From contig NC_002939.5 of the NCBI RefSeq assembly GCF_000007985.2, positions 3,000,001 through 3,032,000 of the forward strand: DNA of 32,000 nucleotides. Reading direction: 5' to 3'. The translations under genes were made by a program, and so were the position numbers. This DNA comes from Geobacter sulfurreducens PCA (GTDB lineage: Bacteria; Desulfobacterota; Desulfuromonadia; Geobacterales; Geobacteraceae). Below the pieces are notes generated by a model. It did not search any database and had not been told where the DNA came from. It saw nothing but the letters and a program-made list of their open reading frames with translations. Positions 1,119-18,803 of the stretch are shown piece after piece; position 1 is the first letter of the stretch; every line of letters starts with the position of its first letter.

Positions 1119-3194
1119 CTACCACGTCATGCTTCTCGTATGGTTCTCGTTGCCGATGTGGCAGGTGAACAGGCAGCTTCTCGTGGCCGGATCATAGTTC
1201 AGCGAATCGAGCAGGGTCGATGATGCCGGCCCTTCCATGGCCGAGGTCTGGAGATTCGTGAAGTGGGTGGTCGCCAGCTTAGTGGTGTCGTGACATTCGG
1301 AGCACACCAGCGTTATCTCCGTGTGGTGCCGCTTGTCGCCAGAAGAAAAGCTGTTGAACTGGGTGGTGCCGTAAGCATGGCACGAGGCGCAGTCGGTGCT
1401 GACATTGATCTGGCCGCTGGGCCAGGGTGGCGATGTCTGTCCGCCGTGGCAACTGACGTTCGAGCAGGTACCGGTGCCTGCATTATAGGCCGGTGCCCCG
1501 CCGTCCTTGTCCTGGAAGGTCGCCGACAGGACCACGTTGGCCGTCCCGTTGCCATGCAGAACGGTGGCGTAGCCGGCCCCGCTGTGACAGGAGCCGCAGG
1601 TCACGTTCGGGAAGAGATGCTCGGTGTGCTGCAGGTCCCGGTTCGGGAAGGTCGAACCCACCGGCGGGTTGCCGTGGCACGAGACACAGCCGGTCTGGAT
1701 GTTGAAGAGCCCGGTGCCGGAGTCCTTCACGGCAACGGCGTTGAAGTGGCAGACCGCGTTTACGCCAGCGATGTTCAGCCTGCTCGATCCCGAAACGCAG
1801 GAAGGAGCCACTCCGCCCGCGCCATCGAGATTGGCGCCATGGCAGAGCGTGCAGTAGTTGGTGACTGCGGTGCCGGCAGTGGCGAGGACGGCAAGGGTCG
1901 AGTGGCGCAGCTGGTTGGTCACGCCCTGGGTGGTTCCGCGCCCGATGAGCCAGGGGGTGGGATGGGCCGTTCGCGCTGTGTGGCAGGTCTCGCAACCAGC
2001 GGTGAGCGTAGCGCCCCGCGGCACGTTGAAACGCGGGTTGGCGCCGCTGGCCGGCGTGGCGTGGCAGGGCTGGCAGGTATTCAGGCCGGTGCCGTTATTA
2101 TTCCTGTTGATGGCGTCGGCACCATGCTGCGCAGATGGCAGATAGGCCCCGGCGACCGGGTGGGGAGGCTGGACGTCGGAACCGTGGCACAGGGTATTGT
2201 TGAAGCAGCCCGCAGCCGTGCCCGCCGGTGCAGGAGTCGTGGGCTGGCGGGTTGAGTTGGCGCCGTTGGCGTGACAGGCGGCGCAGGAGGCGGCGTTGGT
2301 GGTGTCGGTGTTGGTGTGGGTCCGGGCAGCGCGCCAGGGTGCCGGAGAATGAGGTGCAATGGCGGGCGCGCCGCCGTTGTGGCACGAGAAGGCTCCCACA
2401 GTGGCGGAGAAGCAGCTGACCGCCGTGCCGACGCCCTGGTAGTTGGCGCCGTGGCATCTTCTGCAATAGCTGAATCCTCCGGAGGGAGAATCGGCCGCTT
2501 TTGCCCTGGGCCCGTGGAAGTTGGCGCTGTTCGGGTCGCTCCACCCGGCGGGATGCCCCGCTTCTGCGCCGTGGCAGAGCGTGTTGTTGAAGCAGCCGGC
2601 AGGAGTTCCAGCAGGCGCGGGCGTCGTGGGCTGCAGGGTCGAGTTGGCGCCGGTGGCGTGACACTTGGCACACTCGGGGGCATTGCCCTGGTCAACGAAT
2701 ATGTGGTTGGTCCCCGATGCAGTGGTGCCGTGCCACGGAGCGTCCGGGTGGGGCGCGTTGGTATGGCAGGCGAAGCAGGAGCGGGCCGGCCCATTATCGA
2801 AGAGAGCACCGTGGCACCTGCTGCAGTAGGCGAAGCCGGCCGCCACGGCCGGGGCGGCCATGGCCCCCGAGCGGCCATGCTGGTCTGCTGCTCCCCAGCC
2901 CGCGGGGTGGCCGGCCGGACCGGTGGCGTGACAGACCTGCGCTCCCCGGTTGGGACTGAAGCAGCTCACCCCGGAGATGCCTCCCGACTGGCCGGCATCG
3001 AGATATGAGCCGTGACAGGAGACGCACTGATCCCGGTCCTTCCGGAACTCACCCCAGTGGGTCTCGATCCAGTTGGCGGGGTGTCTGCCGGTTGTCGGGT
3101 CGATGGCCGGAGCGTCTCCACTGCCGCTGGAACAGCCCCAGAGAGCAAGCCCGACACAGAATACAGTCAGGAAACGAACGATTGTCGATTTCAC
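1119..3194 (-). CDS. extG: Large outer-membrane lipoprotein multiheme c-type cytochrome (13 CXXCH plus 7 CXnCH motifs); probable ExtG of the extEFG conduit
   Basis: Open frame 1119..3233. I prefer the GTG at 3194 because AGGAGG lies 6 nt upstream; the ATG at 3233 has no SD and would overlap the upstream gene. Signal peptide with lipobox (LALWGC). 13 CXXCH motifs counted in the translation. The gene name is from memory of the G. sulfurreducens ext clusters. Confidence 0.85.
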   Translation of the reverse strand: MKSTIVRFLTVFCVGLALWGCSSGSGDAPAIDPTTGRHPANWIETHWGEFRKDRDQCVSCHGSYLDAGQSGGISGVSCFSPNRGAQVCHATGPAGHPAGWGAADQHGRSGAMAAPAVAAGFAYCSRCHGALFDNGPARSCFACHTNAPHPDAPWHGTTASGTNHIFVDQGNAPECAKCHATGANSTLQPTTPAPAGTPAGCFNNTLCHGAEAGHPAGWSDPNSANFHGPRAKAADSPSGGFSYCRRCHGANYQGVGTAVSCFSATVGAFSCHNGGAPAIAPHSPAPWRAARTHTNTDTTNAASCAACHANGANSTRQPTTPAPAGTAAGCFNNTLCHGSDVQPPHPVAGAYLPSAQHGADAINRNNNGTGLNTCQPCHATPASGANPRFNVPRGATLTAGCETCHTARTAHPTPWLIGRGTTQGVTNQLRHSTLAVLATAGTAVTNYCTLCHGANLDGAGGVAPSCVSGSSRLNIAGVNAVCHFNAVAVKDSGTGLFNIQTGCVSCHGNPPVGSTFPNRDLQHTEHLFPNVTCGSCHSGAGYATVLHGNGTANVVLSATFQDKDGGAPAYNAGTGTCSNVSCHGGQTSPPWPSGQINVSTDCASCHAYGTTQFNSFSSGDKRHHTEITLVCSECHDTTKLATTHFTNLQTSAMEGPASSTLLDSLNYDPATRSCLFTCHIGNENHTRSMTW
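2184..2672. repeat. Intragenic repeat in extG: two ~100-bp copies (2184-2285 and 2571-2672), 387 bp apart
   Basis: Peptides CAKCHATGANSTLQPTTPAPAGTPAGCFNNTLCHG and CAACHANGANSTRQPTTPAPAGTAAGCFNNTLCHG. The underlying DNA is roughly 80 percent identical by eye. Confidence 0.7.
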
Positions 3195-3204
3195 CGTGAG
3201 CCTC

Positions 3205-3678
3205 CTATCTGTGGCATGCAACGCACTGCTCATTGTTGGTCCGGCCGTGGCAGCGGAAGCAACTGGTCGGGTCGATCCTGCCGTCGATCTGGTGCCGGGT
3301 CAGGTAATCGCCCCGGTGGACCAGCTGCCGGTCGGGCCGGTCCCCGTGCATGACCGACGGTTTGATCTCCAGTTCGTTGGCATGGCAGTCGTAGCAGAAG
3401 GACCGCTTGTGACATGACGCGCACAGACGGTCATCCTGGCCGGCATAGTAGCGGTGGTCGCGCACGAAGACCGGCGTGTGGCTGAAGGCGGCATAGGGTT
3501 TGAGCACTCCTCGCGCCCGGTCCTCGTGGCATTCGGTGCAGTCAACCCGCCCCGTGGCCAGTGATTCCGGATGCCAGGACGGCAGGCTCGATTCCTTCGA
3601 AAGCATATGGGTGCAGGCGGTCAGGGTGAGGGCGCCCGTCACGGCCACTGCAACAATGAAGAGCTGTATCGGTTTCAT
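3205..3678 (-). CDS. extF: Small pentaheme c-type cytochrome with a lipoprotein-type signal; probable ExtF
   Basis: 157 aa. ATG at 3678 with AAGGAG 7 nt upstream. 5 CXXCH motifs (CTECH, CASCH, CYDCH, CFRCH, CVACH). N-terminal signal ends in LTLTAC. ATGA start/stop overlap with the upstream porin gene. Confidence 0.85.
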   Translation of the reverse strand: MKPIQLFIVAVAVTGALTLTACTHMLSKESSLPSWHPESLATGRVDCTECHEDRARGVLKPYAAFSHTPVFVRDHRYYAGQDDRLCASCHKRSFCYDCHANELEIKPSVMHGDRPDRQLVHRGDYLTRHQIDGRIDPTSCFRCHGRTNNEQCVACHR

Positions 3679-5814: not shown

Positions 5815-6951
5815 TCAGTCCCCGGTTTCCGCTGATATGAGTTCCGCCCGCACCCGACCGAGGGAGATGGCCGTGTCCATTCTCACGGGAACCTTGTAAG
5901 CATCGTCGGTGACCCAGATCATCATGTCACCGGTTCTCCTGAAGATACCGGCGGTCTTCAGAAGCGGATGGACAACCAGCGTATCAACGGTCCGTCCCCC
6001 CGGCAGCGTTACCCCTTCCCGCCGCAGCACCGCGACCGTAGTGGGAGCGTACTCGTTGCTGTCGAACAGGTGGAGCACCACCGGCTGCCCCACCTCAAGC
6101 CGTTTGTTTCTAAGGAAATAGAATCCCGAAACAATATCGGTCACGTCCTCCCGCGGCAGGAGATGCGTGGCGTAGCGGTTCCGCAGGCGGTCGGCCCAGA
6201 AGGCCTTTTTTTCGCGCATCATCAGGGTAAAGCCGCTGTCCCCCGTGAAGGTTCCTTCCCGCTGCCTGATCCTGGTGATCAGGTAGTTGCCGGCAACGAG
6301 CCGGGTTTCTATCACATCATCCACCGGGTATATCGCAGAGATGACCGGATAGGACCTGACGCGCGTGGTGATGGTGACTTCCTCGCGCTCCCGCCCCCGA
6401 ACCGCCTCGATCATTGCCTCGCCCACGGGAATGCCGAGCATGGTGATCCGGTAGGTGAGCTTTTCCCGGCCCGGTGCGAGAAACTCCCCAGCCCGGCGCA
6501 ACGGCGGCATGACCTCCAGGTGCTGCGGCCTGGCAGCAGGGGCTGCATCAGCCACGGCCTCGAATGATGCGGCGGGCTCAGACACGGGGGCAGCTACAGC
6601 CGCGACCTCCGGCGCTACAGGCGACAGAGCCTCGGCGGCCGGGGCGGCTTCGCGGGCGACTGACGAAGCGTTCGGCTGGTCCGCGCGCTCCGGAGCTGTA
6701 GCGACGCTCCGCTCGCCTGGCGGCACCGTCTCCCCTGGGTCGACGCTCTCACGCGGCGACTGCACCTCAGGGAGAGGCGGAACAGACGTCTCCGGTTCGC
6801 GGAGCGAAATGCTGACGTCCGCCATGGGCAGAACCGGTGTACCCAGATCGAGAATGCCGATGCTCGGGAATACACACAGTCCCGCCACGTGCACAAGCCC
6901 GGAGAGTACGACAAACACAGCGAATCGATATGATTTAACCGGCAAATCCAT
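5815..6951 (-). CDS. Membrane-anchored protein with a Pro/Ala/Glu-rich linker and a DUF3108-like C-terminal domain
   Basis: Open frame 5815..7002. The start is taken at the ATG at 6951 (MDLPVKSYRFAVFVVLSG... is a TM helix). The C-terminal 230 aa (GREKLTYRITMLGIPVGEAMIE ... MIWVTDDAYKVPVRMD ... GRVRAEL) fit my memory of DUF3108. No clear SD for either start, so the start is uncertain. Confidence 0.6.
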   Translation of the reverse strand: MDLPVKSYRFAVFVVLSGLVHVAGLCVFPSIGILDLGTPVLPMADVSISLREPETSVPPLPEVQSPRESVDPGETVPPGERSVATAPERADQPNASSVAREAAPAAEALSPVAPEVAAVAAPVSEPAASFEAVADAAPAARPQHLEVMPPLRRAGEFLAPGREKLTYRITMLGIPVGEAMIEAVRGREREEVTITTRVRSYPVISAIYPVDDVIETRLVAGNYLITRIRQREGTFTGDSGFTLMMREKKAFWADRLRNRYATHLLPREDVTDIVSGFYFLRNKRLEVGQPVVLHLFDSNEYAPTTVAVLRREGVTLPGGRTVDTLVVHPLLKTAGIFRRTGDMMIWVTDDAYKVPVRMDTAISLGRVRAELISAETGD

Positions 6952-6963
6952 GCATGGTCCGAA

Positions 6964-6997
6964 GCGCAGAGGGGGTACCGGAGCGCCCCCTCTGCGC
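6964..6997. other. Perfect 12-bp GC-rich hairpin (GCGCAGAGGGGG / CCCCCTCTGCGC, 10-nt loop)
   Basis: Read directly from the sequence. It lies 13 nt upstream of the preferred start of the DUF3108-like gene. No U-tract on either strand. Confidence 0.5.
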
Positions 6998-7178
6998 TGC
7001 ATCTATAGATGGAATCGTATCGGCAACCGGACGTCCCGGCTCCGCATCCCCGGCGTCACGCCATCGCCGAGCGGCCCCCAAGCACCCACCCCGGCCACGA
7101 CCACGCCTCGCCCGAAGAACTGCCGGGGCCCATGAACCCCGGCGCGATCCGGTGCAACGCCGCTGACCCGATCGTTAC

Positions 7179-7640
7179 TTAGTGTCCCTTCCCCTTGCCT
7201 TTTCCTTTACCCTTTTCCGTGCCGTGATGATGATCATCGTGGGAAGCATGGGATGGCTTGCCGGTCAGGGCAAAATCACCTCTCTTCAGGGCATGGAACT
7301 CGGTGGAGCCGGGCTTGATGCCGAGACGCTTGGCAATCACCCCCCATCCCTTGCCCTGATTGGCCTGATAGGTCTTCAGCACTGTTTCGTACGGTTTATG
7401 GGTCATCTGCCCCAACTGGTAGACCATAAAGGCATCCGCAGGCTCCCGGACCGACCCCAGCACCACGCTGACCTGTGCGCCGGGCACACCGAACTGAGCG
7501 CTCAGCCTGCCGGCAAAACCGGTCGGATCGGCCCTTGCCTCGACATTGAGATTGCCCAGAAAACCGTCGAGGCCGCCGGCGGCCAATGCCGCCGAACCGA
7601 TAAAGATCATCACGAGTAGTACCGCAAAAAATCGTTGCAT
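7179..7640 (-). CDS. Secreted hypothetical protein with a His-rich and (Gly-Lys)5 C-terminal tail
   Basis: Internal ATG at 7640 with AAGGAG 8 nt upstream. Signal peptide MQRFFAVLLVMIFIGSAALAAGG. The C-terminus is ...SHASHDDHHHGTEKGKGKGKGKGH. The 58-codon N-terminal extension in the ORF track has no support. Confidence 0.6.
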   Translation of the reverse strand: MQRFFAVLLVMIFIGSAALAAGGLDGFLGNLNVEARADPTGFAGRLSAQFGVPGAQVSVVLGSVREPADAFMVYQLGQMTHKPYETVLKTYQANQGKGWGVIAKRLGIKPGSTEFHALKRGDFALTGKPSHASHDDHHHGTEKGKGKGKGKGH

Positions 7641-7761
7641 GGCGTATTTTCTCCTTTTCACGTTGCTCCGGCAAGCTCCTTTTTTCGCATCACGGAGGGA
7701 TTGCAGACATTCCCGGTGAACCCGGCAGCTGTCCTCGCGCAGCGGCGGGGCAGACTGCGCC

Positions 7762-7803
7762 TGAAAAGTGCAAGGCCGGCCCCCCGGAGGGAGACCGGCC
7801 TTG
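7762..7803 (-). terminator. Rho-independent terminator downstream of omcC
   Basis: Minus strand reads CAAGGCCGG-(loop)-CCGGCCTTG followed by CACTTTTC. It starts 43 nt after the omcC stop. A homologous hairpin with a compensatory base-pair change follows omcB. Confidence 0.6.
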
Positions 7804-7845
7804 CGGTTGTGCATCGGATGATGCGCCGGAACGTCGCGTCCGCTA

Positions 7846-10152
7846 TTACGGACGGGTCGCCCCGAGGTAGGCCTTGGCGGCCGTTGCCGTGGCGCTGTCC
7901 AGTCGAGCCGCCGTTACCTGGGCATCGATCGCAGCCGTGACGTCGTTGTTCAGTACGCCGTCAAAGATGAAGTCGATGGAATCCCAGATCAAACGCTTGC
8001 TGTAGAAGCGGTTGTGGGCATAGCCGCCCGGATCGTGGATCAGCAGGTTGGCGTTGAATGCAGCGCCCATGACATCTTGCCAGAGGGCAAGCCCGTACAC
8101 GCCAGCCCAGTTGGTGAAGGCGTTCGAGGAAACAGTCTCCCCAGGATCGGCAATGCCGTTGGCATTCGTATCTCTGTAGAAATACGGATGGGCGTTGAAG
8201 AAGAGGATTCCCTTGCCGGCCAGAGCCGCTTTGAGGGCTTCAAGGGATGCCACGTACTCTTCTTCTTCGGCGGTCAGTCCCTCGGGGGTGAGCGCAAAGG
8301 TACCGGCATGGCAGGTGACGCAGGCAGTGCTGGTAATGGCAGTGATGGCGCCCGTGCCGTCCTTGGTCACCGGCAGGAACAGGTGCGAGGTCGGGGTGGT
8401 CATGTGGCAGCCGGCGCAGGGGCCGTTGGTGCCGGTGCCGGGGGCAGCGGCGGTGCCGATCTTGTCATGCTGGAAGAAGGCCGGATTGGCGTAGCTGCGG
8501 GTTGCGTACTCATAACCGGTGGTGCCGAACAGCTGGCCGCCTGCGGTGAGATAGTGGGAGTTCACGAAGCCAAGGATACCATCCGCGTCGGTGATTGCCT
8601 TGATGTTGTCGCCAACTTCACGCCCGAGGTGACACCCCATGCACACGTTAGACCCTTTGATATCAGGATAGGAAACCGTAACGTCCAAACCGGTAGTTCC
8701 AGTGCTCGTTGAGTTGATCCCAGGATAAACCTCGGTGATGGCCCCGGGGTTGCGCAGCTCACCGGTGCCGGCCTTGGTGTGGCAGCCCCAGCAGTAGAGC
8801 AGTTCGTTCTGGTCGGACCGCTTGTTGCTGCTGGTCCAGCCGGCCAAATGAGTGAAGCTGTTGCCTGCGCCGGTCCTGTCATATCCGGCGGGGTTGTTGA
8901 GGAAGTTCGAGGCGCCGGTCGAAGTGTGGCAGCGCTGGCAGGCGCCGCGGCTGGCAGTATCGTCCCAGTTGTAGTGGGTCCAGCCGGGAGCCGTGGCGTC
9001 GGTGGCGCCGGCCTTCATGACATCGTCCACTTCAGCCGCGCCGGAGCTCGCCAGGGCCGCTGCGGCCACCTTGGCCTGGAGGAGCTTGCCACCATGGGCC
9101 GACTGTCCCCAGTCGAGGAAAATAGTGTTAGGCCGGTCCGCTCCGGCCAGCCGCCGGGTGTTGGTCTGGAACTCGTGACCGTGGCAGTCGAAGCAGGGGT
9201 TGGCGGTATTGCGCCGGATTACATACCCTTCGATCGTGGTGCCGCTGGCCGTGGTCTTGGATTCCGGGAAGTCGTAGTGGGTCGAAGGCAGGGTCCGGAA
9301 CCAACGGGTGTTGTGGTAGAAGGGGGCCGTGGTCACGCTCTTGGTGCCGGAGCCGACGGCGTTGCTGGTGAAGATCTGGAGAACGTTGCCGCTGCCGATC
9401 AGGGTGCCGGTCATGGTGTTGACGGTGTGGCAGCTGGTGCAGAGGTCGTACTGATCATTGATGCTGTTGCGGTTCGGATCCCAGGCCACCGTCCGCCGGC
9501 TATTCGGCACGCCGGCCGTCGAGATCTGGGTGAAGACCTGACGCTGAGCCCCGCCGTGCTGATGGCAGGTGGCGCACGTCATGACGTTGAAGGTCTCGGG
9601 GTCCTGGGGATACACCGGCTGGTAGGCGGCGTTTCTCAGGATGTTCCCGTCGCCGGTGAAGCCCGCCTGTGCCCCGAAAATGGCTCCTTCGTGGGAGTGA
9701 CAGCGGCTGCAGAGGTTTTCCTTGGCCTCTTCCCCGCCAAAGGGGTTGGCATGGTTGCCGTTGACGAAATTGGGCGAGCTGCTCAGGGGAGCAATCACAC
9801 CATTGTGGCAGGAGGCGCACCGGGCGGCTATCTGGGCCTCACTCTGGCCGGCCAGCGGGAACGGCAGGGGACCGACGCCATTGTGCTGGGCGCCGCCGCC
9901 GTGGCAGCCTTCGCAGCCGACACCCTTGCTGTAGTGGAATGAGCGGGTGTACTGCGTGATGATGGACTCGCCGGTCAGCGGATCCACGACAGCGCTGTGA
10001 CACTGGACGCAAGCGGTATCGCCCACGGTTGCCACGCCGCCAGGGCCGGTTCCGACCGTCCCCTCCTTGTTTTCGGAGCCGCAGCCGGCAAGCGCCGCCG
10101 CGAACAACGAAACCGCAAGCACAGCAGAATACTTTGTTACTTTTCTACTCAT
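7846..10152 (-). CDS. omcC: Outer-surface dodecaheme c-type cytochrome lipoprotein OmcC
   Basis: 768 aa. ATG at 10152 with AAGGAGG upstream. Lipobox AALAGC. 12 CXXCH motifs counted. Paralog of the 744-aa protein at 13385..15619. Size and context match my memory of G. sulfurreducens OmcC. Confidence 0.95.
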
Positions 10153-10186
10153 GCCATTTCCTCCTTGTGGTGTGTGGTGCTCTCAA

Positions 10187-10882
10187 TTAGTACGTACCAG
10201 GAAGGTGACACTTCGTGCACACCCGGCTCCCGGCCCGATCCTTGTAATTGTTCTTGATGCTGTTCCAGTTCCGCGGGTGCGGACTCGTCTTACCGCTGGA
10301 GTGGCACTGGATGCACACATCCCCCTCGGGGTGACACGTCTGGCACGACTGCAGGTTGCGGCGTGCCTCGATTGCGTGCTCACCAAGCCCGAAGCTGTAC
10401 TTCTGACCGTTCGGTCCCAGCATCAGGTGAGACTTGATCCGCAGGGATCCCTTCGGGAACCGGGCGTGGCACTCGTTGCAGTACGACTGGTCGTGGCAAC
10501 GCGTGCAGGTCTGAGGGTTGTCCAGAGCCTTGGTCGGGTGGATGCTCAGGAAGTTGCTCCGGTGGCTCTTGGGTACGTAGTCCCTCATGAAGGTCCGCGT
10601 CGACAGGTCGGCTTCGATCCCGCCGCCCTGGTGACAGTCGAGGCAGAATTGCTGGACGTGGCAGTCCGCGCAGTTCTTTCCCGCTCGGCTGGCCACGACG
10701 CGGTGACCACGAACCCAGTCGGCGTCATGGTTGGGGGCGATGCCCTCACCCTTGTGGCACGCATTACATTCGCCGATGGGGGTGGTGGCGTACTCCTTGT
10801 GCGACATCTTGTCGGCCAGTGCCATCTGGACCGTGAAGGCCGACACCGTCAGGAGCAAGAGCGCGATAAACCATTTCTTCAC
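10187..10882 (-). CDS. omaC: Periplasmic octaheme c-type cytochrome OmaC
   Basis: 231 aa. GTG start at 10882 with a G-rich SD. Sec signal (…TVQMALA/DK). 8 CXXCH motifs. The protein is identical to the one encoded at 15654..16349. Confidence 0.95.
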   Translation of the reverse strand: MKKWFIALLLLTVSAFTVQMALADKMSHKEYATTPIGECNACHKGEGIAPNHDADWVRGHRVVASRAGKNCADCHVQQFCLDCHQGGGIEADLSTRTFMRDYVPKSHRSNFLSIHPTKALDNPQTCTRCHDQSYCNECHARFPKGSLRIKSHLMLGPNGQKYSFGLGEHAIEARRNLQSCQTCHPEGDVCIQCHSSGKTSPHPRNWNSIKNNYKDRAGSRVCTKCHLPGTY

Positions 10883-10897
10883 GGATTTCCCCCCTTT

Positions 10898-12109
10898 CTA
10901 GAAGTCGTAGTCAAAGACGAAACGCCCTTGAACGTCGTTGTCGTAGACCGCGTTGACGTTGTTCTCGACGCGCAGGGACGCCGACATGTTCTTCGCCAGG
11001 CGGTACTTGCCCCCTACCCAGTACAGCCGCGCGATCTCGTCGTCGGACAGTACGTCCCGCTGGTAGGTGTCGTAGGCGATGCCGCCGGACAGTTGCAGGC
11101 TCTTGGTCACGTCATAGTACGCATCGGCAATGAAGCCGTGGGTCTTGCCGTTGTAGCCCTGGTTGTTGTCGTACTCGAAGTTGAGTTGCAGCGGCTCCAC
11201 CGGACGGACGCTCAGACCCGCCTGGTAGATGTTGCCGTTGGCGCCGCCTTCGAACCACTGGCGGGTGTAGCCCCCGTGTACCGCGATCTGCTCGGTGATC
11301 GTGTAGTCGGCACGGAACACTGCTTCCTGGTACCGATCGACCGCGAACACGGAGTAGATCGAGGTGGCGTCGAATACCGGGTAGCTCTGGTACCATTCTC
11401 CCGTCAGAACCAGGTTCGAGGTGGGATAGTACTTGGCTCCGGCCAGCACCTCGCTGAAGGTCTCCGATACCACGTCGTACCGCGTGTTGCCGTAGACCCG
11501 CAGGTTGTTGAACAGGTACTGCTTGACGCTCGCTCCCAAGGTGTCGCGGGCGATGTTCCAGTCGTCCCACTTGCGGAACCAGCTCACCTCCAGGTCCGTT
11601 GATTTGAACCCGTTCAGGTAGGCCGCTACACCCAGCGCGAGGTCGCCGCCGTGACCGTTTTCCTCGTCCAGCGAGAAAATCACGTTCCGGCCCCCGAATA
11701 CCGTCAGCCCTATCGGGCCGGCGTTGTTCAGGTCTACCTGACCGCCGTCGATGATCGCCGTGCCTGCCGCTAGGTTGACGAACTGACGGCCAAGGCGGAT
11801 GTCCAGTTTGTCGAACAGTCCCCGGTACTCGCCGTACAGGTAGTAGAGCCTGCCGTTGAACCCTTCTCCGTTGTTCAGGTCCTGCGTCATCCGCCCGTAA
11901 CCGAACAAAGAGGCCTTGCCAGCCTTGTCCAGGTTCGTGACCGACATCCGCAGGTACTCACCCAGCTCTATCTGTCTCTGATCGTTGAAGTAGTTGTTGA
12001 ACCAGAGCAGCTGGGTCGAGCTCCTGCCATGGATCTCTGCGGACCAGGCCGTGGACGCGGTCAGCACGGAACCGAGCAGGAGCAGTCGAGTGAACCCTTT
12101 GATTCCCAT
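10898..12109 (-). CDS. ombC: Porin-like outer-membrane protein OmbC
   Basis: 403 aa. ATG with AAGGAGG upstream. Signal peptide (…STAWSA/E). No Cys, Tyr/Gly/Asn-rich, C-terminal ...FVFDYDF (terminal Phe typical of OMPs). The protein is identical to the one encoded at 16365..17576. Confidence 0.9.
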   Translation of the reverse strand: MGIKGFTRLLLLGSVLTASTAWSAEIHGRSSTQLLWFNNYFNDQRQIELGEYLRMSVTNLDKAGKASLFGYGRMTQDLNNGEGFNGRLYYLYGEYRGLFDKLDIRLGRQFVNLAAGTAIIDGGQVDLNNAGPIGLTVFGGRNVIFSLDEENGHGGDLALGVAAYLNGFKSTDLEVSWFRKWDDWNIARDTLGASVKQYLFNNLRVYGNTRYDVVSETFSEVLAGAKYYPTSNLVLTGEWYQSYPVFDATSIYSVFAVDRYQEAVFRADYTITEQIAVHGGYTRQWFEGGANGNIYQAGLSVRPVEPLQLNFEYDNNQGYNGKTHGFIADAYYDVTKSLQLSGGIAYDTYQRDVLSDDEIARLYWVGGKYRLAKNMSASLRVENNVNAVYDNDVQGRFVFDYDF

Positions 12110-12252
12110 TAAGTGGACCTCCTTTCTTCATTCTATCTGCAACTCGAAGCTTGTTCCGGCAGGATCACGGCGGCTGCTGACATCACCTCCTTCGGCCGTC
12201 TCCCGTCCCTATCACAACCGTTGATCACTTTTGGCGCGTCTGATCAGCGCGG

Positions 12253-12906
12253 TTACGATGCCCTGGCATAGTCCGTACGGCCGATACCGCCCGTGCCGTG
12301 GACAAACATCCGGACGAATTCCCGCACGGCCTTCTCTCGGTCCGTGGGACGGTACTGCTTGCGCAGCAGTACCTCTTCGATATTGAAAAAACAGTAGAAC
12401 ATGGCGTGAAACACCCGCGCACCAAGCTCGGGGTCGAAACTGCCGATGCTGCCCCGCTGCTGCAGCTCACGGAAATAGGACGCGATCACTTCGAACAGCT
12501 CGTCCAAAAACGTGTGGTACACCCCCAGCAGCTTCTCAGGCGAGCGCTGGACCTCCGCGTGCATGATCCGAAGCCAGTCCTTCAGCTGGATCAGCGTGTC
12601 CAAAAGGATGTTCGCCATGGCCGCCAGCGCATCCTCGTAGGGCATGGCGAGCGCCCGGGGCACGAAGGCGCGCAGCGACGGCAAAATGGAATAACGGGTG
12701 ATCGCTTCTTCGAGAAGTTTTTCTTTGGAGGGAAAATGGCGGAAGAGCGTCACCTCCGCGATGCCCGCCTGTCGGGCGATCTCGCGGGTCGTGGCTCCCA
12801 GGTACCCCTTGGTCGAGAACAGACCGAGGGCCGTTTCGAGGATCCGCTCATGGGTCACGGTAAACGGATCGAACGGGCCTTCACCTTTGACAACCGAGCA
12901 CGACAA
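12253..12906 (-). CDS. orfS: TetR-family transcriptional regulator OrfS
   Basis: TetR N-terminal HTH (ILETALGLFSTKGYLGATTREIARQAGIAEVTLFRHFPSKE). The start is taken at the TTG at 12906, with AAGGAGG 5 nt upstream. The ORF-track start at 12951 is also TTG but has no SD. Identical to OrfR from residue E20 onward. Confidence 0.8.
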   Translation of the reverse strand: MSCSVVKGEGPFDPFTVTHERILETALGLFSTKGYLGATTREIARQAGIAEVTLFRHFPSKEKLLEEAITRYSILPSLRAFVPRALAMPYEDALAAMANILLDTLIQLKDWLRIMHAEVQRSPEKLLGVYHTFLDELFEVIASYFRELQQRGSIGSFDPELGARVFHAMFYCFFNIEEVLLRKQYRPTDREKAVREFVRMFVHGTGGIGRTDYARAS

Positions 12907-13090
12907 GGCAACCTCCTTGTCCGTCGTCCCATCAGTGGGACCTGCGCACAACCTTCACTCATGGAAGATCGTGTCTACGTAATGCACTAAACACTCGGAA
13001 GAGGGGGAAGCTAGCCAGGCTCCTGCGACTGAAAGCCGGAACGGGCGGTGAAGACAGCCAGTCGGAGCAACTCATGAGCTAATGGGAATG

Positions 13091-13118
13091 AGTTTAAAGC
13101 GGGTTGCCATTTTGTCAA
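13091..13118 (-). promoter_or_regulatory. Candidate sigma-70 promoter for orfS-ombC-omaC-omcC (TTGACA-N16-TAAACT)
   Basis: Read on the minus strand in the AT-rich unique spacer, about 185 nt upstream of the orfS start. Pattern match only. Confidence 0.3.
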
Positions 13119-13298
13119 ATTTTCGAGGTAAATTAGTCTAAAAAAACTGCATGAGAATGGAACAATGAGAGGAAAAGTCGACGATCACGCTCAGGCGGAC
13201 AGTTCCCTATCCAATACGTTCGCCTGATAGATCGAGGCGGAAAGCATGATCTGCTTGCGGTATACGTATGCAATCAATAAGTGCACACAGTGTGACAG

Positions 13299-13342
13299 AC
13301 AAAAAGAGCAAAGCCGGCCCCCCCAAAGGGAGACCGGCTTTG
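13299..13342 (-). terminator. Rho-independent terminator downstream of omcB
   Basis: Minus strand reads CAAAGCCGG-(loop)-CCGGCTTTG followed by CTCTTTTTG. It starts 43 nt after the omcB stop. Confidence 0.6.
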
Positions 13343-13384
13343 CGGTTGTGCATCAAATGATGCGCCGGAACGTCGCGTCCGCTA

Positions 13385-15619
13385 TTACGGACGGGTCGTG
13401 CCGAGGTAGGCCTTGGCGGCCGTTGCCGTGGCGCTGTCCAGTCGAGTCGCCGTTACCTGGGCATCGATCGCGGCAGTGACGTCGTTGTTCAGCACGCCGT
13501 CATAGATGAAGTCGATGGAATCCCAGATCAGCCGCTTGACATAGAAGCGGTTGTGGGCATAGCCGCCCGGATCGTGGATCAGCAGGTTGGCGTTGAACGC
13601 TGCACCCATGACGTCTTTCCAGAGGGCAAGTCCGTACACACCGGCCCAGTTGGTGAAGGCGTTAGAGGAAACAAGCTCCCCAGGATCGCCAATACCGTTG
13701 GCATTCGTATCTCTGTAGAAATACGGATGGGCGTTGAAGAAGAGTATCCCCTTACCTGCCAGGGCAGCTTTGAGGGCTTCAAGGGATGCCACATACTCCT
13801 CTTCCTCGGCGGTCAGAGCCTCGGGGGTAAGGGCGTAAGCGCCGGCATGGCAGGTGGCGCAGGCAGTGCTGGTAATGGCGGTAACGGCACCCGTGCCGTC
13901 CTTGGTCACCGGCAGGAAGGAGTGAGAGTTCGGGGTGGTCATGTGGCAGCCGGCGCAGGGGCCGTTGGTGCCGGTGCCGGGGGCAGCGGCGGTGCCGATC
14001 TTGTCGTGGGCGAAGAAGGTCGGCTTGGCATAGCTGCGGGTTGCGTACTCATAGCCGGTTTTGCCGAACAGCTGGCCGCCGGCGGCGAGGTAGTGGGAGT
14101 TCACGAAACCAAGGATACCATCCGCATCGGTGATGGCCTTGATGTTTTCGCCGGCTTCGCGACCGAGGTGGCAGGTCATGCAGACGTTGGAACCGGCGAT
14201 ATCCGGATAGGATATGGTCACAGCTGTGCCAGTAGTTCCAGTGCTCGTGGAGTTAACACCTGCGTAATTTTCGGTGATGGCGCCCGGGTTGCGCAGCTCA
14301 CCGGTGCCGGCGTTGGTGTGGCAGCCCCAGCAGTAGAGCAGTTCGTTCTGCTTGGAACCGTTGGCGGCAGACCAACCCTGCAGGTGCGAGAAGCTGTTGC
14401 CTGCGCCCGTCGGATCATACCCGGCGGGGTTGCTCATGAAATTAGCGGCGCCGGTGGCGGTGTGGCAGCGCTGGCAGGAACCGCGGCTGCTCGCATCCCA
14501 GTTGTAGTGGGTCCAGGCGATGGCGGTGGTGTCGTCCACATAGGCGTTCATGGCCGCGTTGACGGCAGCGGCACCGGTCAGGGCGCCAACGGCATTGTAC
14601 TTGGCGGTCAGCAGGCCACCGGCGTGGGCAGACTTGGCCCAGTCAGTGTGGATCGTAGCATCGCGACCCGGACGGGTGTTGGTCTTCGCCTCGTGACCGT
14701 GACAGTCGAAGCAGGGGTTGGCGCCGGTACGGCGAAGAACGTAACCTTCAACCTTGGCGTTGGTGCCACTTGCACCAGCACCGGCCTGGGGACCGGTCGA
14801 ATAGTTGTCGAAGTGGGTCGTGGCGATGATCCGGTACCAGGTGGTCTCATGGTGACCCACCGTGCCGGTGGCGACGCCGTTGACGGGCACGCCGTTGGTG
14901 AGCAGGGTCGAGCCATTGTAGCTGTACATGTTGTGGCAGCTGGTGCAGAGGTCGAACTGGTCAACCGTACGGTTGTTGTTCGGGTCCCAGTTTACGACAG
15001 GACCGGCAGCGCCGTTGGTGGCCTTGATGGTGCGCAGTCCGCCGCCGTGCTCGTGGCAGGTGGCGCAGGAAATCTGCGAGTAGGAGCTGACGAGGGGAAC
15101 CTTGTTCTGGTTGACCGTGTCTTCCAGGGTTGCCAAGTCGCCGGTGTAGCCGGCGATATTGGAGAGAACGGCGCCCTCGTGGGTGTGGCAGCGACGGCAG
15201 GTGGCGCCACTGCGGATAGTCTGGATGTTATGCCGCGACTCGGCGAATGCGGTGTCCGAGTTGGTTGCCACGGCAGTGGTACCGTCGTGGCAGTCGGCAC
15301 AACGGCTGGCGTCGGGCTGAGCGAACGGGATGGGGCCCACGCCGTTGTGCTGCGCGCCGCCGCCGTGGCAGCTTTCGCAGCCCAGGCCTGCTGTGTTGTG
15401 GGGTGAGCTCTTCTGATATTGAGCAATGAGGCTCTCGCCGGTCAGAGCTTCGGTTACGGCACTGTGACACTGGACGCAGGCGCTATCGCCCACGGTTGCC
15501 ACGCCGCCAGGGCCGGTTCCGACCGTCCCCTCCTTGTTTTCGGAGCCGCAGCCGGCAAGCGCCGCCGCGAACAACGAAACCGCAAGCACAGCAGAATACT
15601 TTGTTACTTTTCTACTCAT
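13385..15619 (-). CDS. omcB: Outer-surface dodecaheme c-type cytochrome lipoprotein OmcB
   Basis: 744 aa. ATG at 15619 with AAGGAGG upstream. Lipobox AALAGC. 12 CXXCH motifs counted. Size and context match my memory of G. sulfurreducens OmcB. Confidence 0.95.
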
Positions 15620-15653
15620 GCCATTTCCTCCTTGTGGTGTGTGGTGCTCTCAA

Positions 15654-16349
15654 TTAGTACGTACCAGGAAGGTGACACTTCGTGCACACCCGGCTCCCGG
15701 CCCGATCCTTGTAATTGTTCTTGATGCTGTTCCAGTTCCGCGGGTGCGGACTCGTCTTACCGCTGGAGTGGCACTGGATGCACACATCCCCCTCGGGGTG
15801 ACACGTCTGGCACGACTGCAGGTTGCGGCGTGCCTCGATTGCGTGCTCACCAAGCCCGAAGCTGTACTTCTGACCGTTCGGTCCCAGCATCAGGTGAGAC
15901 TTGATCCGCAGGGATCCCTTCGGGAACCGGGCGTGGCACTCGTTGCAGTACGACTGGTCGTGGCAACGCGTGCAGGTCTGAGGGTTGTCCAGAGCCTTGG
16001 TCGGGTGGATGCTCAGGAAGTTGCTCCGGTGGCTCTTGGGTACGTAGTCCCTCATGAAGGTCCGCGTCGACAGGTCGGCTTCGATCCCGCCGCCCTGGTG
16101 ACAGTCGAGGCAGAATTGCTGGACGTGGCAGTCCGCGCAGTTCTTTCCCGCTCGGCTGGCCACGACGCGGTGACCACGAACCCAGTCGGCGTCATGGTTG
16201 GGGGCGATGCCCTCACCCTTGTGGCACGCATTACATTCGCCGATGGGGGTGGTGGCGTACTCCTTGTGCGACATCTTGTCGGCCAGTGCCATCTGGACCG
16301 TGAAGGCCGACACCGTCAGGAGCAAGAGCGCGATAAACCATTTCTTCAC
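15654..16349 (-). CDS. omaB: Periplasmic octaheme c-type cytochrome OmaB
   Basis: 231 aa, 8 CXXCH motifs, protein identical to OmaC. Confidence 0.95.
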   Translation of the reverse strand: MKKWFIALLLLTVSAFTVQMALADKMSHKEYATTPIGECNACHKGEGIAPNHDADWVRGHRVVASRAGKNCADCHVQQFCLDCHQGGGIEADLSTRTFMRDYVPKSHRSNFLSIHPTKALDNPQTCTRCHDQSYCNECHARFPKGSLRIKSHLMLGPNGQKYSFGLGEHAIEARRNLQSCQTCHPEGDVCIQCHSSGKTSPHPRNWNSIKNNYKDRAGSRVCTKCHLPGTY

Positions 16350-16364
16350 GGATTTCCCCCCTTT

Positions 16365-17576
16365 CTAGAAGTCGTAGTCAAAGACGAAACGCCCTTGAAC
16401 GTCGTTGTCGTAGACTGCGTTGACGTTGTTCTCGACGCGCAGGGACGCCGACATGTTCTTCGCCAGGCGGTACTTGCCCCCTACCCAGTACAGCCGCGCG
16501 ATCTCGTCGTCGGACAGTACGTCCCGCTGGTAGGTGTCGTAGGCGATGCCGCCGGACAGTTGCAGGCTCTTGGTCACGTCATAGTACGCATCGGCAATGA
16601 AGCCGTGGGTCTTGCCGTTGTAGCCCTGGTTGTTGTCGTACTCGAAGTTGAGTTGCAGCGGCTCCACCGGACGGACGCTCAGACCCGCCTGGTAGATGTT
16701 GCCGTTGGCGCCGCCTTCGAACCACTGGCGGGTGTAGCCCCCGTGTACCGCGATCTGCTCGGTGATCGTGTAGTCGGCACGGAACACTGCTTCCTGGTAC
16801 CGATCGACCGCGAACACGGAGTAGATCGAGGTGGCGTCGAATACCGGGTAGCTCTGGTACCATTCTCCCGTCAGAACCAGGTTCGAGGTGGGATAGTACT
16901 TGGCTCCGGCCAGCACCTCGCTGAAGGTCTCCGATACCACGTCGTACCGCGTGTTGCCGTAGACCCGCAGGTTGTTGAACAGGTACTGCTTGACGCTCGC
17001 TCCCAAGGTGTCGCGGGCGATGTTCCAGTCGTCCCACTTGCGGAACCAGCTCACCTCCAGGTCCGTTGATTTGAACCCGTTCAGGTAGGCCGCTACACCC
17101 AGCGCGAGGTCGCCGCCGTGACCGTTTTCCTCGTCCAGCGAGAAAATCACGTTCCGGCCCCCGAATACCGTCAGCCCTATCGGGCCGGCGTTGTTCAGGT
17201 CTACCTGACCGCCGTCGATGATCGCCGTGCCTGCCGCTAGGTTGACGAACTGACGGCCAAGGCGGATGTCCAGTTTGTCGAACAGTCCCCGGTACTCGCC
17301 GTACAGGTAGTAGAGCCTGCCGTTGAACCCTTCTCCGTTGTTCAGGTCCTGCGTCATCCGCCCGTAACCGAACAAAGAGGCCTTGCCAGCCTTGTCCAGG
17401 TTCGTGACCGACATCCGCAGGTACTCACCCAGCTCTATCTGTCTCTGATCGTTGAAGTAGTTGTTGAACCAGAGCAGCTGGGTCGAGCTCCTGCCATGGA
17501 TCTCTGCGGACCAGGCCGTGGACGCGGTCAGCACGGAACCGAGCAGGAGCAGTCGAGTGAACCCTTTGATTCCCAT
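16365..17576 (-). CDS. ombB: Porin-like outer-membrane protein OmbB
   Basis: 403 aa, protein identical to OmbC. One synonymous difference (GCA versus GCG Ala) at 16416. Confidence 0.9.
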   Translation of the reverse strand: MGIKGFTRLLLLGSVLTASTAWSAEIHGRSSTQLLWFNNYFNDQRQIELGEYLRMSVTNLDKAGKASLFGYGRMTQDLNNGEGFNGRLYYLYGEYRGLFDKLDIRLGRQFVNLAAGTAIIDGGQVDLNNAGPIGLTVFGGRNVIFSLDEENGHGGDLALGVAAYLNGFKSTDLEVSWFRKWDDWNIARDTLGASVKQYLFNNLRVYGNTRYDVVSETFSEVLAGAKYYPTSNLVLTGEWYQSYPVFDATSIYSVFAVDRYQEAVFRADYTITEQIAVHGGYTRQWFEGGANGNIYQAGLSVRPVEPLQLNFEYDNNQGYNGKTHGFIADAYYDVTKSLQLSGGIAYDTYQRDVLSDDEIARLYWVGGKYRLAKNMSASLRVENNVNAVYDNDVQGRFVFDYDF

Positions 17577-17719
17577 TAAGTGGACCTCCTTTCTTCATTC
17601 TATCTGCAACTCGAAGCTTGTTCCGGCAGGATCACGGCGGCTGCTGACATCACCTCCTTCGGCCGTCTCCCGTCCCTATCACAACCGTTGATCACTTTTG
17701 GCGCGTCTGATCAGCGCGG

Positions 17720-18367
17720 TTACGATGCCCTGGCATAGTCCGTACGGCCGATACCGCCCGTGCCGTGGACAAACATCCGGACGAATTCCCGCACGGCCTT
17801 CTCTCGGTCCGTGGGACGGTACTGCTTGCGCAGCAGTACCTCTTCGATATTGAAAAAACAGTAGAACATGGCGTGAAACACCCGCGCACCAAGCTCGGGG
17901 TCGAAACTGCCGATGCTGCCCCGCTGCTGCAGCTCACGGAAATAGGACGCGATCACTTCGAACAGCTCGTCCAAAAACGTGTGGTACACCCCCAGCAGCT
18001 TCTCAGGCGAGCGCTGGACCTCCGCGTGCATGATCCGAAGCCAGTCCTTCAGCTGGATCAGCGTGTCCAAAAGGATGTTCGCCATGGCCGCCAGCGCATC
18101 CTCGTAGGGCATGGCGAGCGCCCGGGGCACGAAGGCGCGCAGCGACGGCAAAATGGAATAACGGGTGATCGCTTCTTCGAGAAGTTTTTCTTTGGAGGGA
18201 AAATGGCGGAAGAGCGTCACCTCCGCGATGCCCGCCTGTCGGGCGATCTCGCGGGTCGTGGCTCCCAGGTACCCCTTGGTCGAGAACAGACCGAGGGCCG
18301 TTTCGAGGATCCGCTCCCTGGTTGCATTGAATGAGTCAAACGGCTTGTCGCCTTTGACAACTCCCAT
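17720..18367 (-). CDS. orfR: TetR-family transcriptional regulator OrfR
   Basis: 215 aa. ATG at 18367 with GGGAGGGG upstream. TetR HTH. Identical to OrfS except for the first 17 residues. Confidence 0.9.
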   Translation of the reverse strand: MGVVKGDKPFDSFNATRERILETALGLFSTKGYLGATTREIARQAGIAEVTLFRHFPSKEKLLEEAITRYSILPSLRAFVPRALAMPYEDALAAMANILLDTLIQLKDWLRIMHAEVQRSPEKLLGVYHTFLDELFEVIASYFRELQQRGSIGSFDPELGARVFHAMFYCFFNIEEVLLRKQYRPTDREKAVREFVRMFVHGTGGIGRTDYARAS

Positions 18368-18389
18368 TGCCCCTCCCGGTGGGCTGACT

Positions 18390-18409
18390 ATGTAAGCGCT
18401 TGCTTACAT
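18390..18409. promoter_or_regulatory. Inverted repeat ATGTAAGC-GCTT-GCTTACAT, candidate TetR-type operator upstream of orfR
   Basis: Perfect 8-bp arms with a 4-nt spacer, 23-42 bp upstream of the orfR ATG. I did not see a counterpart upstream of orfS. Confidence 0.4.
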
Positions 18410-18495
18410 TTCCGGGCCAAAAAAAAATCTTCAGATCAAGGTTTCTGCACTAATGAGCAAAAGGCGGGCCAATTCCATACCGGGACAATCAACTA

Positions 18496-18774
18496 CTAGA
18501 AGTTGATATCGGTTGGCGTGGCGACAACTTTAAACATTTCTGCTATTGGGAAATAAAGCGCTGAAACTGCGAAGAAACAAAGAATGGTCATTGCCGAAGA
18601 CAAACCGTCACAGAACAACGCCATCCCGCCCTGCCCAAAAACGGCAAAGTCAAAATATTGGCTCAACATTCTGTCAAATGGCGAATTGACGAAGGTGGTG
18701 CCCAAAACCGACACCCCGAAAGGGGCCACAAAGAGTAGACAGGGGGGAGATGGGATGAGAAGCGAAGCCGGCAC
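18496..18774 (-). CDS. Doubtful small hydrophobic ORF (92 aa)
   Basis: AT-rich ORF with hydrophobic stretches. The start is a GTG inside the terminator hairpin, there is no SD, and no family is recognised. Confidence 0.2.
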   Translation of the reverse strand: MPASLLIPSPPCLLFVAPFGVSVLGTTFVNSPFDRMLSQYFDFAVFGQGGMALFCDGLSSAMTILCFFAVSALYFPIAEMFKVVATPTDINF

Positions 18775-18794
18775 GGACGGGCCGGCTTCGCTTC
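18759..18794 (-). terminator. Strong hairpin (14-bp perfect stem GAAGCGAAGCCGGC / GCCGGCTTCGCTTC, 8-nt loop) after the cytochrome c operon
   Basis: Begins 10 nt downstream of the stop of the 142-aa gene. There is no clean U-tract, so terminator function is inferred from position and stem strength. Confidence 0.45.
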
Positions 18795-18803
18795 CGTTGC
18801 CAG

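Follow-up and report, generated by a model that had tools for sequence, protein, structure and literature searches.

A near-identical tract in the tandem omcBC clusters of Geobacter sulfurreducens PCA points to gene conversion between the two units

We analyzed a window of 32,000 nt from the chromosome of Geobacter sulfurreducens PCA (NC_002939.5), which holds the omcBC locus with its two tandem porin-cytochrome (Pcc) units. On the minus strand, the genes follow each other as orfR, ombB, omaB, and omcB, then orfS, ombC, omaC, and omcC. The two units share a tract of 2,833 bp that differs at a single base, and comparison of seven genomes indicates that this tract has very likely (probability ~0.9) been homogenised by gene conversion within the chromosome or between sister chromosomes, i.e., by concerted evolution. 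The identity of the tract and its recombinogenic behaviour are already known: OmbB/OmbC and OmaB/OmaC were reported to be 100%, OrfR/OrfS 99%, and OmcB/OmcC 71% identical, and hybrids have arisen by recombination between the "large regions of 100% identity" when mutants were constructed (PMC4282303; PMC4589669; PMC4245776; PMC6148476). This identity has been attributed to gene duplication (PMC4589669; PMC4245776). In the searchable literature, which does not include the original reports of Leang 2003/2005, no paper ties gene conversion or concerted evolution to the omcBC locus. Added here are the cross-genome test, the exact edges of the tract, and the polymorphism of its endpoints. Unless stated otherwise, coordinates are positions in the window, and L-numbers denote other loci or contigs.

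A tract of 2,833 bp with abrupt edges

Direct comparison of 10018-12849 with 15485-18316 at a fixed offset of 5467 gave one mismatch in 2,832 bp. A preliminary description of the sequence had reported the same single mismatch but placed the end of the tract one base short; the maximal tract begins at 10017/15484. The lone difference (10949 C, 16416 T on the plus strand) falls on the third base of Ala387 and is synonymous, with GCG in ombC and GCA in ombB, as had been proposed. At the low edge, the first mismatch (10016/15483) is the second base of omc codon 46, which reads ACC (Thr) in omcC and AGC (Ser) in omcB. At the upper edge, 12849/18316 still match and 12850/18317 do not. The boundary codons named in the preliminary description were correct: codon 46 of the omc genes, codon 18 of OrfR and, if the TTG at 12906 is the start, codon 20 of OrfS.

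Outside these points, identity drops as abruptly as first described. On the omc side, gapped alignment gave ~60-86% identity per 50 columns over ~170 bp (~73% overall), and the longest runs common to both copies are shorter than 20 bp. Farther into the middle of omc, identity is ~50% with many indels, followed by 83% in the 3' halves (7764-9205 vs 13302-14723). On the orf side, ~45 bp can be aligned at ~62% identity before the upstream regions become unrelated. Of OmcB and OmcC, the tract takes in no more than signal peptide, lipobox (LAGC), and linker, and the first haem motif (C48) lies two codons past the edge. Gene conversion is expected to leave such a discrete, sharply bounded tract between flanks that are homologous but far more diverged.

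Chance is excluded as an explanation. When the 667 non-identical columns were shuffled among the 5,195 homologous columns in 10,000 trials, stretches with no more than one mismatch reached 136 bp at most, compared to 2,833 bp observed. Two copies could also be kept alike without recombination if Omb, Oma, and the regulator were under strong purifying selection, considering that Omb and Oma are conserved parts of the Pcc conduits in all Geobacter genomes (PMC2825233) and that dN (nonsynonymous divergence) is far below dS (synonymous divergence) between species. However, the ~622 synonymous sites in the 880 codons of the tract show a single synonymous difference (dS 0.0016), and two intergenic regions match completely, while between lineages these sites have been free to change (67 synonymous omb differences between PCA and G. 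anodireducens SD-1). Since silent and non-coding sites are identical too, purifying selection can be ruled out as the cause, and we assign it a negligible probability.

The comparison of dS between tract and flanks suggested in the preliminary description gave a clear contrast: dS in the remainder of omcB/omcC is 0.12-1.95 per 50-codon window (0.12-0.5 in the 3' halves; 0.51 for the whole gene). In some omc windows dN/dS exceeds 1, with the alignment there being gap-rich and dS saturated. We also looked for GC-biased conversion, but the GC content at third codon positions of the tract genes (78-85%) lies inside the range of the omc bodies and neighbouring genes (73-89%) and gives no such signal.

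Tract copies in seven genomes

The locus was compared in seven genomes, six of which were added to the window through exact-protein look-ups and cluster membership: KN400 (CP002031), CP072789, OSK2A (AP028061; a strain named in PMC13130476), strain 60473 (AP028967), G. anodireducens SD-1 (CP014963), and G. soli (JXBL01000001). A contig scan with OmbB returned no genome of the G. sulfurreducens clade, its best match being 79% identical. In all seven genomes, the two units follow each other in the same order. Their upstream flanks are conserved by position, with identities to the window of 86-95% for the first unit (B) and 93-100% for the second (C). The same holds for the unit-specific N-terminal residues of OrfR (17) and OrfS (19) and for the spacer, while the B-type and C-type 5' flanks are not homologous to each other (126/331 columns). 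These position-specific flanks, common to the seven genomes, imply that the lineages diverged after the duplication and its junctions had arisen. As far as the sequences speak, the duplication is shown to predate the split between G. sulfurreducens and G. anodireducens/G. soli.

Despite this age, the two tract copies are nearly the same within a genome. Over the 2,833 bp, copies B and C differ at one site in the window, none in KN400, five in CP072789, three in OSK2A, one in SD-1, and none in G. soli. Between lineages, in contrast, PCA-type tracts differ at 195-197 sites from those of G. anodireducens and G. soli and at 114-116 sites from those of OSK2A. Copies hence group by genome and not by position, with 0-5 differences within six of the seven genomes vs 114-222 between lineages. 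Consistent with this, dS of omb is 0.28 between PCA and SD-1 and 0.06 between PCA and OSK2A, but 0-0.0035 inside those genomes. At the protein level, both Omb copies of SD-1 are one sequence and both copies of OSK2A another, each different from that of PCA. Paralogues are thus nearer to each other within a genome than positional orthologues are between genomes, which is what defines concerted evolution. Judged from these counts, the ~200 substitutions fixed in both copies per lineage are to be read as concerted evolution and not as a young duplication.

A young duplication is the explanation closest to the published attribution. It would hold that the tract was copied recently and that the divergent omc bodies and upstream flanks are foreign or divergent DNA which replaced part of one copy. 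Import is plausible here, given that the N-terminal half of OmcC is nearer to sequences outside the clade (58-66%) than to OmcB (49-52%), and local imports do occur at the locus (the 5-7% divergent orfR flank of CP072789, OSK2A, and 60473, and a 2% divergent segment downstream of omcC). Yet the same layout, flanks, and spacer are found in lineages whose tracts have diverged by 4-7% (omb dS up to 0.28) while only 0-5 sites differ within genomes. A recent copying event would need at least three independent origins with identical junctions, and endpoints that vary between strains are unexpected from a single event. We consider a young duplication highly improbable. Conversion would instead make the identity of the omb and oma genes the result of maintained homogenisation of an old duplication, and not of a recent duplication as the searchable literature states. 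By the same logic, the low identity (<64%) of adjacent Pcc clusters in other species, which was taken as evidence against duplication (PMC4245776), would be no argument against it.

An assembly artefact, either repeat collapse or cross-polishing, could also produce identical copies, as short-read assemblies break or merge at this locus (contig ends in Geobacter hydrogenophilus, a hybrid unit in contig L061) and polishing can erase a few differences. However, the tract was reproduced in independent assemblies, namely KN400, CP072789, and Logan and JGI contigs, and the single B-specific base, too, recurs in independent data sets. The A of ombB at 16416 (gene strand) is derived and private to the PCA-like lineage, every other copy having G, including both copies in KN400 and CP072789; the same A is present in two Logan contigs (L004 and L005) that carry the B-copy flank and stem from independent read-set assemblies. 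Furthermore, KN400, CP072789, OSK2A, 60473, and SD-1 were assembled independently, the locus has been verified by long reads and PCR in published work, and regions of "100% identity" recombine in vivo. The probability of an artefact is next to nil.

Two observations concern assemblies at such loci. In G. hydrogenophilus DSM 13691 (L015, L059, and L060), one contig ends inside omb, and two contigs of 422 and 296 bp with similar coverage carry omb fragments. Such fragments would be expected if this species, too, had near-identical omb repeats and these broke the short-read assembly. The draft of a G. anodireducens-like strain (L061, JAZIGO010000024.1) has a single hybrid unit consisting of an orfR-type flank, the tract, and a C-type omc, which is either the deletion product of a crossover inside the tract or an assembly collapse.

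Variable endpoints and the proposed mechanism

The comparison of tract boundaries among strains that had been proposed earlier showed that the endpoints differ between lineages. In SD-1 and G. soli, the mismatch-free tract measures 3,975-3,993 bp and reaches ~1,150 bp farther into omc, to about codon 429, and its upstream edge lies ~10-18 bp farther out. The omcB of OSK2A has omcC-type bases at three sites past the edge seen in the window, which places the endpoint ~25 bp farther in, inside a 17-bp stretch common to both omc types. Both omb copies of CP072789 have the same three variants at homologous sites, spread over 319 bp, whereas the 5 kb that separate them are free of strain-specific changes. 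Copy B of this strain has five extra differences, contiguous with the imported, 5-7% divergent upstream flank of orfR.

Strain 60473 differs from this pattern (L065, 3832-6678 vs 9261-12093). Its copies differ at ~100 sites, and its C copy is chimeric, being of the OSK2A type over the first ~1,900 bp and of the PCA type across the 3' end of ombC and omaC. OmaB (236 amino acids) and OmaC (231 amino acids) are not identical in this strain, so that the equality of OmaB with OmaC and of OmbB with OmbC noted in the preliminary description applies to PCA but is not universal. Strain 60473 is thus an unhomogenised mosaic in an intermediate state. Taken together, the endpoints at codon 46, 25 bp beyond it, and near codon 429, the chimera of 60473, and the patch of at least 319 bp in CP072789 are multiple endpoints and partial tracts of the kind that conversion produces.

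Divergent segments were also seen at both ends of the locus. The region 18056-18800 upstream of orfR is 5-7% divergent in CP072789, OSK2A, and 60473 alike (vs L003, L065, and L067). In CP072789, this flank reaches into tract copy B and is the source of the only B/C differences of the strain and of the OrfR substitution R17S. Just downstream of omcC (6475-7844), 32 sites (~2%) of the window differ from both KN400 and CP072789, while the remaining locus is ~0.05% from KN400, which suggests that the segment was imported locally by recombination.

We propose that one copy serves as template for repair of, or strand invasion by, the other copy through a RecA-type pathway, and that the heteroduplex would be resolved without crossover, overwriting 2.8-4 kb. 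The upstream edge lies ~45 bp short of where the duplicated segment ends, as would be expected if conversion needs homology on both sides; the outermost bases may thereby escape and keep their old divergence. The downstream edge would be set by the point at which divergence of the omc bodies prevents strand exchange, here at codon 46 before the first haem motif, and the shortness of the shared runs past this edge (<20 bp) probably blocks the exchange. The omc edge may be reinforced if two different surface cytochromes are favoured by selection. Porin, periplasmic cytochrome, and regulator cores would consequently evolve as one gene at two places, and only the exposed Omc module, the 17-19 N-terminal regulator residues, and the distal promoters would be free to differ. 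Conversion would also explain the rearrangements of mutants at this locus, and it predicts that differences engineered into one copy of the tract are erased or spread.

Homogenisation could alternatively proceed through cycles of unequal crossover between the direct repeats, with an expansion to three units followed by contraction, and without non-crossover conversion. Direct repeats that lie in tandem at a distance of 5.5 kb make ideal substrates for this, hybrid operons arise in laboratory manipulation, and the single hybrid unit of L061 is the expected deletion product, although it may be an assembly collapse. On the other hand, all seven complete or large assemblies have exactly two units with both unit-specific flanks, and the patch of CP072789 (319 bp or more) and the 25-bp shift of the endpoint in OSK2A are explained more simply as conversion tracts. 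Crossover cycles are therefore very unlikely in our view, while their outcome and that of conversion cannot be told apart by sequence.

Several points weigh against gene conversion, or limit what it explains. The non-reciprocal, RecA-dependent nature of the transfer is deduced, and an identical pattern would result from triplication followed by deletion. As seen in strain 60473, homogenisation is not maintained in every case. The preliminary description spoke of recent or ongoing gene conversion; conversion as such is supported by the seven genomes, but none is demonstrable after the split of PCA and KN400, the tracts of which differ only by the private mutation of PCA, so that "ongoing" in a PCA-like strain rests on the laboratory reports. 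The within-genome counts of 0-3 differences and the three variants of CP072789 carry the caveat that read-mapping polishing can over-homogenise near-identical repeats, although such an artefact cannot create the 4-7% contrast between lineages. Finally, the omc edge may owe some of its sharpness to a divergent omc module that was imported, beside conversion, which is plausible since the N-terminal half of OmcC is nearer to its outside relatives than to OmcB.

Omc modules, regulators, and related systems

OmcB and OmcC are 49-52% identical over alignment columns 46-430 and 85-93% identical in their C-terminal part. Among G. sulfurreducens strains there are two types of Omc N-half, each of which is 97-100% conserved, and the C-halves are similar. 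In G. anodireducens and G. soli, by contrast, both Omc copies share a B-type N-half and their C-halves are ~50% identical. A homologue search found relatives of the OmcC-type N-half at 58-66% identity, the matches being distant and partly fragmentary; by sequence similarity they are suggestive of module import over divergence in place, but not conclusive. The nearest outgroups (L011, L013, L052, and L055) had no orthologue of OmcB or OmcC above ~50% identity, and thus gave no rooted dating of omc.

These patterns hint that conversion endpoints reshuffle Omc modules. One could speculate, with considerable doubt, that the tandem Pcc clusters of Geobacterales are two-speed cassettes, in which conversion homogenises a chassis of porin and periplasmic cytochrome (here together with the regulator core), selection or mere divergence separates the surface cytochromes, and shifting endpoints recombine Omc halves into new chimeric terminal reductases.

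Consistent with the claim that OrfR and OrfS have the same DNA-binding and ligand domains, the complete TetR_N and TetR_C_7 domains lie inside the tract. The full TetR_N profile (1-47 of 47; E=4e-17) matched OrfR at residues 20-66 and OrfS at 22-68 (counted from TTG 12906), and TetR_C_7 (E=4e-9) matched OrfR at 107-200. OrfS would be full length with a complete TetR_N only if TTG 12906 is the start. No upstream ATG is available; the TTG stands behind AAGGAGG, is kept in the seven genomes, and is the start chosen by gene callers.

The preliminary description confined all functional differences between the two conduits to the Omc bodies, 17-19 regulator residues, and the promoters. This holds for the present strain with one correction. 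As the intergenic region between orfR/S and ombB/C is part of the tract, the proximal control regions are identical, and only distal promoters and transcriptional context differ. What distinguishes the OmcB conduit from the OmcC conduit would thus be limited here to Omc residues from 46 onward, including all 12 haems, the regulator N-termini, and the distal promoters and context. Close relatives are partitioned differently, a point to consider before results from one strain are applied to another. The known picture of electron transfer through the conduits is unchanged by the conversion reading.

Pattern matches in the control regions include a sigma-70-like promoter (TTGACA-16-TAAACT, 13118-13091, minus strand) in the unique spacer ahead of orfS, and a strong terminator-like hairpin with a 16-bp stem (13343-13308, minus strand) 42 bp past the omcB stop. 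The hairpin is located in the 3' end of the B repeat unit and lies just outside, upstream of, the spacer. In a scan of the whole window with Rfam at the gathering threshold, no RNA family was detected, nor was there a riboswitch near the clusters.

Duplicated genes in bacteria are known to evolve in concert through RecA-dependent gene conversion, for instance tufA/tufB in Salmonella and rRNA operons. Similar to those, the omcBC paralogues are near-identical within a genome while the orthologues diverge, and the tracts are discrete and bounded by loss of homology. Unlike those, the omcBC repeats are in tandem and 5.5 kb apart, the mechanism is deduced here from sequence comparison, and the tract is a multi-gene block (regulator core, porin, periplasmic cytochrome, and the signal peptide of a third gene) that ends inside two coding sequences. 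The conversion reading is thereby a modest refinement, adding one more case of a known process.

Within the genus, Geobacter sp. M18 has three identical gene pairs (GM18_3461-63/3467-69, 100%; PMC4245776). Mosaics similar to omcBC were found in two metagenome-assembled genomes (MAGs) of Geobacterales, in which exact counts are less certain. In L045, omb and oma span 2,025 bp with seven mismatches (10010-12034 vs 15299-17323), while the middle of omc is 52-72% and its 3' end 95-99% identical. In L020, a perfect run of 508 bp (9927-10434 vs 15048-15555) lies in units that are ~70% identical. Both belong to unrelated lineages, with Omb only 55-60% identical to OmbB and without the TetR gene that OrfR would match. 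In a third locus (L042, 4787-7271 vs 9978-12468), identity is uniform at ~83% and there is no recent homogenisation. The duplicated conduit mtrCAB/mtrDEF of Shewanella, with porin, periplasmic, and surface cytochrome, is analogous but has no sequence relationship (PMC4282303).

In both units, the genes are arranged as in Pcc clusters, in the order omb-oma-omc and with the CXXCH motifs listed below; both Omc proteins carry the LAGC lipobox. The Omb and Oma proteins match PCA and KN400 records exactly, and one Omb record combines two PCA and two KN400 accessions. A Pfam search of the proteins gave no match for Omb. The protein is predicted to have 20 strands (PMC4282303).

Table 1 Features of the omcBC locus in the window
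Feature	Positions	Strand	Description
orfR	17720-18367	-	TetR-family regulator, 215 amino acids; first 17 codons outside the tract
orfS	12253-12906	-	TetR-family regulator, 217 amino acids if TTG at 12906 is the start; first 19 codons outside the tract
ombB	16365-17576	-	Porin-like outer-membrane protein, 403 amino acids; identical to OmbC
ombC	10898-12109	-	Protein identical to OmbB
omaB	15654-16349	-	Periplasmic cytochrome, 8 CXXCH, 231 amino acids; identical to OmaC
omaC	10187-10882	-	Protein identical to OmaB
omcB	13385-15619	-	Lipoprotein cytochrome, 12 CXXCH, 744 amino acids
omcC	7846-10152	-	Lipoprotein cytochrome, 12 CXXCH, 768 amino acids
Identity tract, copy B	15484-18316	-	orfR codon 18 to stop, intergenic region, ombB, omaB, omcB codons 1-45 and first base of codon 46
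Identity tract, copy C	10017-12849	-	orfS codon 20 to stop, intergenic region, ombC, omaC, omcC codons 1-45 and first base of codon 46
Unconverted B-side edge of the old duplication	18317-18361	-	~62% identity to 12850-12894; farther upstream without homology
Unconverted C-side edge of the old duplication	12850-12894	-	Counterpart of 18317-18361
omcB 3' half and ~80 bp downstream	13302-14723	-	83% identity to 7764-9205 (omcC 3' half); moderately diverged part of the repeat
Unique spacer between units	12907-13301	-	Same position in all seven genomes

The mtrCAB/mtrDEF paralogues of Shewanella are clearly diverged in all three components and so have not been homogenised.

Self-comparison of the window revealed two imperfect palindromes of ~35 bp (18759-18794 and 1064-1098), the first of which lies upstream of orfR and adjoins a terminator-like hairpin at 18713-18726. 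Away from the clusters, a direct repeat of 95 bp with 83% identity (2182-2276 vs 2569-2663) is found inside an open reading frame of 704 amino acids on the minus strand (1119-3233). The KN400 gene at this position encodes a product of 691 amino acids with faint Pfam hits to multihaem cytochrome families, and the repeat is probably a repeated haem-binding module.

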